NCBI GenBank assembly: GCA_009837565.1
Contig: VXTH01000046.1
Location: forward strand, 1 to 27,826
Origin: Chloroflexota bacterium
GTDB lineage: Bacteria; Chloroflexota; Dehalococcoidia; Bin125
Length of the DNA stretch: 27,826 bases
Reading direction: 5' to 3'
Position numbers and translations under genes: made by a program. A model generated the notes under the pieces. That model was given only the letters and a program-made list of their open reading frames with translations. It had not been told where the DNA came from and did not search any database. Of this stretch, positions 4,632 to 5,786 are shown piece after piece (position 1 is the stretch's first letter; every line of letters starts with the position of its first letter).

Positions 4632-5786
4632 CTACTCGGTTTCGTCGCTGGGGAGTTCATCCCAGGCAGCGGTCTCGACGGGGTCGACCACCACTGCGGC
4701 GCCCTGCAGCATTCGGTGTCGCTCCTCGAGAGATTGGCGGGCCAACTCTCTCAGCGATGCACGCCGTTCGCGACCAGTGCTCCTTTGCTGAGATATGCCA
4801 GGGATATAGCTCTCGGCATCCTCCGTCGTAATCATGCTCTCTGCCAATGCCCGCAAGACAAGCCGTCGAAACAGGGCCGGCGCCTCGCTCGACTGGTAGG
4901 CATGTGGCTCCGTCCGATGCCAACCTTGAGTTCGGAACTGGATGTTGAGTGAGCGATAGAGATCTTCTCCGATGATGTCGAGATCACGTGCGCGCCGGAT
5001 CCAAGCCTGCATGCTGAGGCCCCAGCGGCGCTTGAGCAGGCCAAGTTCGTCGAGATCGAGCCCGCGACGGTGTGTGCCTAGCTCGCGTCGCGCAGCCTCT
5101 GCCGGAACCAGGAACGCTGCTGCGAACCGATGAGCAAATGGCTCGTCCAGCTTGGCGTCTCCCGTTTGTTCCATGATCAAATGGCCGAGTTCGTGCGCTG
5201 CATTGAAGCGCTGCCTGTCGGGAGGTACGGCAGTGTTCAACACCAGGATGGGACTCCGATTGGCCCAGCCGGACAGCGCATCGAATCCCCATTTTTCGTG
5301 CCAGCCAATAACGGAGCCGCCGCGTTCCTCGATCAACTCAAGGAGGCCATCAATCGGTCGATCTCCAAGTGACCAGTGCATTCGGAGCGCTGCGGCGGCG
5401 TACTCGCAGTCGTTGACGTTCTGGACCTCGATTGGACCGGGTAGGTCGTGCCAATCGCCCAGATGGAAAAGGCTTCGGAGTCGGAATTCCCCTTCCAGCT
5501 TTTGCTGCGCGATGGCGGTCAGTTGATTCTGGCGCGCCTTGCTCAGGTTCGCGTGCTTGCGAAAGGCCTCCCACCGAATCTCGATCGCCTCTTCAGTGAG
5601 CAGCGACGACGCCGTCACGTTGAGCGCCTGCGCGATGTCGGAGATCCGGGTCGGGTTCGGCTGAGCCAACCCCTTCTCGTACTTGGACAGAGCCTGCTTC
5701 GAGATAGGATGCTCCAGCTTCGCCGCCAGACCCTCCAGGGACAGCCCGGCTGCCAGCCGCGCCTGGCGCAGTCGGGTCCCCAACAT
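4632..5786 (-). CDS. XRE-family HTH fused to an ImmA/IrrE (M78) metallopeptidase, with an extra C-terminal tail of about 50 aa (384 aa total)
   Basis: ATG at 5786 with GGAGGAGG RBS; N-terminal HTH (LRQARLAAGLSLEGLA...SKYEKG); RFNAAHELGH zinc motif; AHRFAAAFLVP. The track's upstream extension to 6161 overlaps the Ubl gene and is rejected. Confidence 0.92.
   Translation of the reverse strand: MLGTRLRQARLAAGLSLEGLAAKLEHPISKQALSKYEKGLAQPNPTRISDIAQALNVTASSLLTEEAIEIRWEAFRKHANLSKARQNQLTAIAQQKLEGEFRLRSLFHLGDWHDLPGPIEVQNVNDCEYAAAALRMHWSLGDRPIDGLLELIEERGGSVIGWHEKWGFDALSGWANRSPILVLNTAVPPDRQRFNAAHELGHLIMEQTGDAKLDEPFAHRFAAAFLVPAEAARRELGTHRRGLDLDELGLLKRRWGLSMQAWIRRARDLDIIGEDLYRSLNIQFRTQGWHRTEPHAYQSSEAPALFRRLVLRALAESMITTEDAESYIPGISQQRSTGRERRASLRELARQSLEERHRMLQGAAVVVDPVETAAWDELPSDETE

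Follow-up and report, generated by a model that had tools for sequence, protein, structure and literature searches.

Introduction

Rosmer-type antitoxins, which combine an XRE-type helix-turn-helix (HTH) domain with an ImmA-type protease, form a hub of the toxin-antitoxin (TA) and defense network and act on many toxins. In the RosmerTA system, the antitoxin RmrA unites an N-terminal XRE HTH and an M78/ImmA-type peptidase in one chain and is encoded beside its toxin; this system and the Streptococcus pneumoniae pair RipA/RipB (spr1630/spr1629) have established XRE-ImmA proteins as antitoxins (PMC10440598, PMC12795458). The toxins described in these two studies are transmembrane or PIN-like (PMC10440598) or target DnaN (PMC12795458), MazF being named in neither. 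No neutralizing determinant is known for RosmerTA, and the RmrTA complex of the Gordonia phage Kita could not be modeled (PMC10440598). Here, we analyzed a contig of 27,826 nucleotides (nt) from a Chloroflexota bacterium of the Dehalococcoidia (VXTH01000046.1, assembly GCA_009837565.1), hereafter the window, in which an RmrA-like regulator lies immediately upstream of a mazF/pemK gene and ends in a 42-residue tail that is very probably a MazF-binding antitoxin element.

A 2009 survey by Makarova, Wolf and Koonin predicted COG2856-Xre fusions that go with PIN and RelE toxins (PMC2701414). The predicted architecture and the idea of a more complex TA circuit are shared with the locus described here, whose partner is MazF instead of PIN or RelE; moreover, the earlier proposal was that of a protease cleaving a separate Xre antitoxin, not of a fusion carrying a toxin-binding segment. 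The partners of MazF recorded in surveys are AbrB, CopG/ribbon-helix-helix (RHH), DUF3018, winged HTH and XF1863 proteins, and not XRE-COG2856 (PMC3879964, PMC2701414), so that XRE-M78 proteins would be added to the known kinds of MazF antitoxin. The searched text of the NetFlax supplements holds no pairing of ImmA (D25) with MazF/PemK, which is not proof of absence, and a limited literature search found no paper on an XRE-M78/MazF pairing or on the tail.

Our analysis suggests that the locus encodes a Rosmer-type antitoxin whose pairing with MazF is mediated by a defined, portable tail. The interpretation that we favor, and hold to be likely, is a two-gene TA module in which regulator residues 343-384 constitute a disordered, portable MazF-neutralizing module. 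Its computed support comprises synteny, tail conservation, the swapping of scaffolds around a constant tail and MazF, tail disorder and a model of the complex that passes its controls, whereas actual binding and neutralization, repression and the trigger are inferred. The toxin-recognition part of this subfamily is thus predicted to be pinned to a short, portable, disordered tail, with a partner that is among the best-understood toxins. The locus offers a tractable system for studying protease gating of toxin release, tail interchange among scaffolds and the wiring of TA modules to a ubiquitin-like (Ubl) defense operon.

The tailed regulator and its MazF partner

The regulator and mazF are arranged head to tail on the minus strand, the regulator first, with the following features:

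4632-5786, minus strand: regulator/antitoxin gene, 384 amino acids plus stop, encoding an XRE HTH, an M78 (ImmA/IrrE/RmrA-like) metallopeptidase, a helical C-terminal domain and a disordered tail
5610-5771, minus strand: XRE-type HTH DNA-binding domain, residues ~6-59 (Pfam HTH_3/HTH_31; structural matches SinR, ImmR and DdrO)
4992-5270, minus strand: M78 zinc-metallopeptidase domain, residues ~173-265 (Pfam; a profile search of the assembly gives identical coordinates)
5181-5195, minus strand: HELGH motif (H198, E199, H202), with E215 as likely third ligand
4761-4796, minus strand: low-confidence linker, residues ~331-342, GISQQRSTGRER, at the junction of body and tail (predicted local distance difference test, pLDDT, <50 at 336-342)
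4635-4760, minus strand: predicted MazF-binding antitoxin tail, residues 343-384, made of the helix SLRELARQSLEERHRML followed by VVVDPVETAAWDELPSDETE with the invariant W375
4617-4631, minus strand: 15-nt spacer, with GGAG at 4623-4626, six bases 5' of the mazF TTG (direct reading)
4257-4616, minus strand: mazF/pemK toxin gene, 119 amino acids plus stop, with R28 and T50 of the catalytic type kept

The regulator likely starts at the ATG at 5786, which gives 384 amino acids, because domains and homologs begin there (MLG.RLRQARL; here MLGTRLRQARL); the 125 additional N-terminal residues of the 509-amino-acid open reading frame (ORF) listed from 6161 carry no domain, and the stop codon is the TAG at 4634-4632 on the minus strand. 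Both Pfam domains are clearly matched (HTH_3, E 6e-13; Peptidase_M78, E 2.7e-16), as are 14 PADLOC RmrA profiles, with a best E of 2e-53 over residues 4-324, while the NCBIfam model "spr1629 family repressor/antitoxin" (RipB) is matched below threshold (86 vs 335 bits) and the PADLOC capP and capH profiles weakly. The AlphaFold2 model of the regulator has a mean pLDDT of 86 and is confident up to about residue 330. In Foldseek searches, the best PDB matches of the protease part were CapP (7t5t, E 4.1e-5) and IrrE/PprI (8sln and 3dti, E ~1e-3), with a probability of 1.00, and the HTH part matched the DNA-binding domains of SinR, ImmR and DdrO. Among 122 homologs, H202 and E215 are invariant and H198 and E199 at least 90% conserved; given the conservation of HELGH (198-202) and E215, the protease looks competent.

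RosmerTA closely resembles the locus in antitoxin architecture, and a defense-island setting is common to both. It differs in that the toxin is a MazF/PemK endoribonuclease and not a recognized RmrT, in the fixed gene order of the window's family (antitoxin first), and in the discrete, portable C-terminal tail predicted to be the neutralizing determinant. Current defense finders would miss the family because MazF is not modeled as an RmrT. The initial annotation had proposed a "three-in-one repressor-protease-antitoxin", a combination that is supported computationally but whose architecture is not new, RmrA and RipB being already such proteins (PMC10440598, PMC12795458).

The mazF gene starts with a TTG at 4616, 15 nt past the regulator stop, and the GGAG-containing spacer is consistent with translational coupling of the two genes. 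Its product matches the Pfam family PemK_toxin (E 5.5e-20), has Mycobacterium tuberculosis MazF9 and MazF7 as closest solved structures by profile matching, also matches the Escherichia coli and Bacillus subtilis MazF structures, and has no PADLOC match at E<=0.01. R28 is conserved in at least 90% of 69 homologs and P48 is invariant among them; by our own motif reading, R28 and T50 would correspond to R29 and T52 of E. coli MazF. As in MazEF, PemIK and Kis-Kid, a MazF-fold toxin with the catalytic Arg/Thr context is preceded immediately by its putative antitoxin gene, whose product has an acidic, Trp-containing C-terminal segment, here predicted to be disordered and to lie along the MazF dimer groove. 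The N-terminal part differs: AbrB/SpoVT or RHH in MazEF antitoxins, versus an XRE-HTH, an M78 protease and a helical domain, together ~340 residues, in the window.

No mazE lies between the regulator and mazF, the 15-nt spacer being too short to encode anything, which agrees in every detail with the initial reading of a missing mazE and a regulator ending 15 nt before the toxin start. The source is a metagenome-assembled genome (MAG) whose assembly is 66% complete; within it, the only PemK and the only M78 are those of the locus, and no PF04014 MazE/AbrB-type domain was found. The sole ORF just 3' of mazF, encoding 59 amino acids (3992-4171), was considered as an antitoxin and discarded, having no counterpart in any related locus. 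Neither the locus nor the 66%-complete assembly thus offers a further candidate for the antitoxin.

The last 42 residues of the regulator, ASLRELARQSLEERHRMLQGAAVVVDPVETAAWDELPSDETE, are identical to those quoted in the initial annotation. A word-based search for regulator homologs returned 476 proteins, most of 383-406 amino acids. The tail is no accidental ending: it is conserved in more than 90 homologs, with L345, R356 and W375 invariant or nearly so, and the C-termini of most homologs share SLRDLAR.P.EERH..L......VD..ET.AWD....D. More distant members display other flavors (...LTDFEAFGEDDL, ...DFEIFEA...) built on a shared plan, in which an amphipathic helix leads into an aromatic, acidic terminus. 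In the full-length model, the pLDDT falls to 46-74 over residues 331-384, vs ~90 for the body, a predicted disorder typical of toxin-binding regions that fold upon binding. The RmrA profiles align just to residues 4-324, so the tail falls outside that homology and, judged by sequence, is not shared by RmrA proteins in general. When a tail profile was searched against all PDB chains, it gave no MazE or other meaningful match, the best hit being an unrelated protein at E 0.18. The "AWD...D" ending had been likened to MazE-like toxin-binding tails: the likeness stands as one of kind (disordered, acidic, Trp-anchored), but sequence homology is not apparent.

Tail exchange among antitoxin scaffolds

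Searching 1.84 billion representative sequences with a profile of the tail alone yielded 57 proteins at E<=1e-3, comprising fragments of the regulator and many small stand-alone proteins that end in the same module of ~42 residues. An exhaustive profile search was needed to find these scaffolds, a word-based search for short tailed proteins having returned just two fragments of the regulator. In the module alignment of the stand-alone proteins, an L, an R, a V and a W are invariant. Their N-termini, by contrast, belong to various classical antitoxin scaffolds: FitA-like RHH (P0125, P0140, P0153), DUF433 (P0142, P0148), Phd/YefM (P0163), a HigA-like HTH (P0132), an XRE HTH without protease (P0159) or a small helical domain (P0161, P0168). 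In P0159, a natural variant of 134 amino acids from a metagenome, the tail follows almost directly on the XRE HTH typical of the family, and both the M78 and the helical domain are absent.

MazF sequence lies directly downstream of the stand-alone tailed proteins in five of the six contexts examined. The downstream mazF is full-length at L086, follows after 15 nt at L087 and L088, is cut by the contig end at L089 and frameshifted at L090; the contig of P0142 carries a PemK of 119 amino acids after a gap of 12 nt, and no mazF was called downstream of P0132. The two MazFs compared with that of the window, from L087 and L086, are 63% and 71% identical to it, and the three placed in a tree (L086, L087, L089) nest within a clade of Dehalococcoidia XRE-M78-linked MazFs with 97% support. 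Since the same tail occurs on different scaffolds next to MazFs of the same clade, tail and MazF are inherited together while the scaffold is exchanged. Such co-inheritance with an exchangeable scaffold is the behavior expected of a toxin-recognition module and constitutes our most telling line of evidence.

This observation bears directly on a rival explanation in which the tail only assists. MazF would then be neutralized by the body of the regulator, for instance through its M78 or helical domain or by degradation of the toxin, or else by an antitoxin encoded at an unlinked site. Rosmer antitoxins share the XRE-M78 body and neutralize very different toxins (PMC10440598, PMC12795458), and the incompleteness of the assembly leaves room for an unlinked gene. 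However, the small tailed antitoxins share nothing but the tail with the regulator and yet pair with the same MazF clade, the RmrA-homologous body ends near residue 324 so that the part varying with the toxin is the C-terminus, and no MazE-type domain was found in the 66%-complete assembly. We consider this explanation very improbable and retain the tail as the likely neutralizing element.

Co-occurrence of tail and toxin

The family is sizeable: a scan of one genome per GTDB species returned 313 matching stretches related to the regulator, the best 80 of which were kept as loci. These span Chloroflexota, Planctomycetota, Pseudomonadota, Nitrospirota, Myxococcota, Verrucomicrobiota, Cyanobacteriota and others. 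MazF-homologous sequence is found immediately 3' of the XRE-M78 gene in 76 of the 80, with a gap ranging from an overlap to +15 nt, and 68 of the 80 have a full-length mazF ORF. Two of the four loci without mazF stop at a contig edge, and the other two (L053, L071) have lost the gene, with an AbiEi gene in its position at L071.

Tail-less homologs are 333-361 amino acids long and all truncated within or directly behind the linker, as read from an alignment of P0059, P0061, P0065, P0070 and P0077. None of the four examined for it (P0059, P0070, P0077, P0071) has a PemK gene downstream, and tblastn detected no remnant of tail or mazF at the three tail-less loci with available DNA. These homologs keep the regulator body, the HExxH motif and the upstream operon. 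In the tree they form essentially one clade (11 sequences, support 91) plus P0076 and not a series of many independent tail losses; they show that the body is maintained without the tail. The distribution fits the logic of TA modules, in which the toxin may be lost alone or with its antidote, and an intact toxin was never left without a tail among the loci examined. The idea that the tail would be restricted to homologs followed by pemK is therefore largely borne out (mazF at 76 of 80 tailed loci and at none of four tail-less ones).

Some of these loci are degraded, which raises the question of whether the window itself holds a decaying or inactive remnant, with a MazF that is no longer toxic and a drifting tail. 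Truncated or frameshifted mazF genes occur in relatives (L008, L019, L034, L037, L090), and the MAG source and the TTG start of mazF point in the same direction. Yet both genes of the window are intact and MazF retains R28, P48 and T50, the regulator and MazF of L001 are 96% and 97% identical to those of the window without any disruption, and the tail is clearly conserved across phyla. A remnant is accordingly the explanation to which we give least credence, and a functional TA pair remains our interpretation.

Predicted complex of the MazF dimer with the tail

Two MazF chains and the last 55 residues of the regulator were modeled together, with a separate alignment for each. The interaction prediction score from aligned errors (ipSAE) reached 0.77, 0.78 and 0.77, vs 0.00 for the best of three controls; this mark is attained by 58 of 80 solved complexes vs 2 of 110 mismatched pairs. 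The runs agree in at least 90% of contacts, with a pLDDT of 72-73 for the partner. Modeling the last ~50 residues with the MazF dimer, as the initial annotation had proposed, thus passes its controls. The predicted interface covers residues 15-54 of the fragment, i.e. 344-383 of the full protein, and on the toxin side includes R28, P48, T50 and residues 105-113. In the model, the helix starting at L345 packs against MazF 105-113, and W375 touches P48 and Q83 of one MazF subunit and S86 of the other. MazF residues 105-106 read EE in combination with an Arg-rich tail helix but are non-acidic in combination with LTVYDLL tails, a suggestive charge co-variation that tracks the tail flavor at the predicted helix-helix contact.

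Several points weigh against this interpretation. Solved MazE-MazF complexes known to the predictor may account for part of the complex score, and the run used our own alignments, outside the calibration of the tool; common descent confounds the charge co-variation. No solved MazE resembles the tail in sequence, so that "MazE-like" denotes a predicted mode of action. Tail and mazF are contiguous DNA, and their joint loss, which a single deletion can explain since there is essentially one tail-less clade and the tail codons adjoin mazF, seems to amount to one or two events and is weak evidence. The tail is present without MazF at L053, L071 (AbiEi instead) and P0132. P0072 and P0074 have tails that lost the Trp and yet precede PemK genes, suggesting that W375 may be dispensable or that these copies may be decaying. 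Finally, the start codon of mazF is TTG, and the source MAG is 66% complete.

The tail could alternatively be a general regulatory element of the regulator, such as a dimerization segment, a pseudo-substrate of its own M78 domain or a Clp/Lon degron, with MazF controlled transcriptionally only. A precedent exists in DdrO/IrrE and CapH/CapP, where the repressor is cleaved by the protease in its C-terminal part (PMC12828697); in addition, the disordered tail follows an exposed linker, and a few loci keep it without MazF. This explanation is nevertheless quite improbable: RHH, Phd/YefM, DUF433 and HigA scaffolds without M78 carry the tail with MazF still next to it, regulators lacking the tail survive with body and operator intact, and the complex model passes its controls. 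A role of the tail as cleavage site or degron is in any case compatible with MazF binding and not exclusive of it.

Possible mode of action

With the tail taken as a MazF-binding element, the locus would work as a two-gene type II TA module whose antitoxin is a large RmrA-type protein made of XRE-HTH, M78 zinc peptidase and helical domain. On binding, the SLRELAR..EERH helix would pack on the C-terminal helix of one MazF subunit, and the acidic VDP.ET.AWD segment, anchored by W375, would run along the dimer groove over R28 and T50 and block access of RNA. Such occlusion of the groove would mirror the way of MazE tails in spite of the unrelated sequences. Through a conserved palindrome of the TGTCAAC..GTTGAC type, the HTH probably represses the divergent promoter that both operons share, so that the XRE domain would be autoregulatory.

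The XRE repressor and M78 chemistry are common to ImmR/ImmA (ICEBs1), DdrO/IrrE (PprI; Deinococcus) and CapH/CapP (associated with the cyclic-oligonucleotide-based anti-phage signaling system, CBASS). These are separate polypeptides, whereas the window regulator fuses both in one ORF, additionally carries the predicted toxin-binding tail and precedes a toxin gene. As in these pairs, the gene diverges from a defense operon and has a conserved operator-like palindrome. In such split systems, a signal leads the protease to cleave the repressor. By analogy with ImmA, IrrE and CapP, our best guess for the trigger is that the M78 protease cleaves the protein in cis or in trans upon a signal of damage or infection; cleavage within the exposed linker (331-342) would detach the tail, free MazF and de-repress the promoter. 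We propose this release step tentatively, as a possibility that is well short of likely.

Still more doubtful is a broader scheme in which a protease-gated antitoxin would couple two defense arms, the ~42-residue tail being a plug-in MazF cassette moved among at least six scaffolds. A phage or DNA-damage cue would induce self-cutting by M78, in cis or in trans, just before residue 343, severing the DNA-binding and protease body from the MazF-binding tail. This one cut would release or destabilize the MazF inhibitor and, via the shared operator, de-repress the divergent Ubl-E2-JAB/E1 operon. If true, the tail would define for the first time how a Rosmer-type antitoxin recognizes its toxin.

Promoter region and genomic surroundings

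Upstream of the regulator, the following features were identified:

5838-5858: imperfect, operator-like palindrome TTGTCAAC-N5-GTGGACG, within the intergenic region common to the regulator and the divergent Ubl operon
5886-5858, minus strand: sigma-70-like promoter candidate TGGACA-17-TAGAAT, abutting the palindrome
5926-6297, 6294-6680 and 6682-8058, plus strand: Multi_ubiq, Prok-E2_E and JAB+ThiF E1 genes, forming an operon divergent from the regulator

The palindrome at 5838-5858 is a candidate operator for the XRE domain. Its TGTCAA..TGAC core does not vary across 14 upstream regions that were aligned, three tail-less loci among them; the exact palindrome TGTCAA-N5-9-TTGACA is found in just four loci, and the motif is degenerate and limited to the Dehalococcoidia group. 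An E1 homolog lies upstream of the regulator in most close relatives (L001-L015 and L081-L083 among the loci), and every homolog examined that lacks both tail and mazF retains the Ubl/E2/E1 operon upstream, on which ground the regulator body may also control the Ubl operon. The divergent arrangement, seen in this Dehalococcoidia group, agrees with the published link between multiubiquitin and COG2856, 70% of multiubiquitin proteins adjoining COG2856 loci (Kopfmann et al. 2016, PMC4963859).

At the tail-less relative L083 (4096-7086), a protein of 583 amino acids with sub-threshold DUF2813 and OLD-like TOPRIM matches begins 10 nt past the regulator stop and is followed by a UvrD-like helicase, giving a Gabija-like pair. 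The slot 3' of the regulator seems to be a swap site for defense cargo.

The window as a whole looks like a defense island. At 63-2905 on the minus strand, it encodes a HerA/DUF87-type ATPase of 735 amino acids (PADLOC HerA matches) with a gene for 211 amino acids downstream, and at 8998-12432 a protein of 1144 amino acids. Between the HerA-like gene and mazF (2905-4256), no gene can be assigned with confidence; the region contains just overlapping ORFs in several frames, some resembling fragments of membrane proteins, and could represent a gene in decay or the scar of an insertion at the module's edge.

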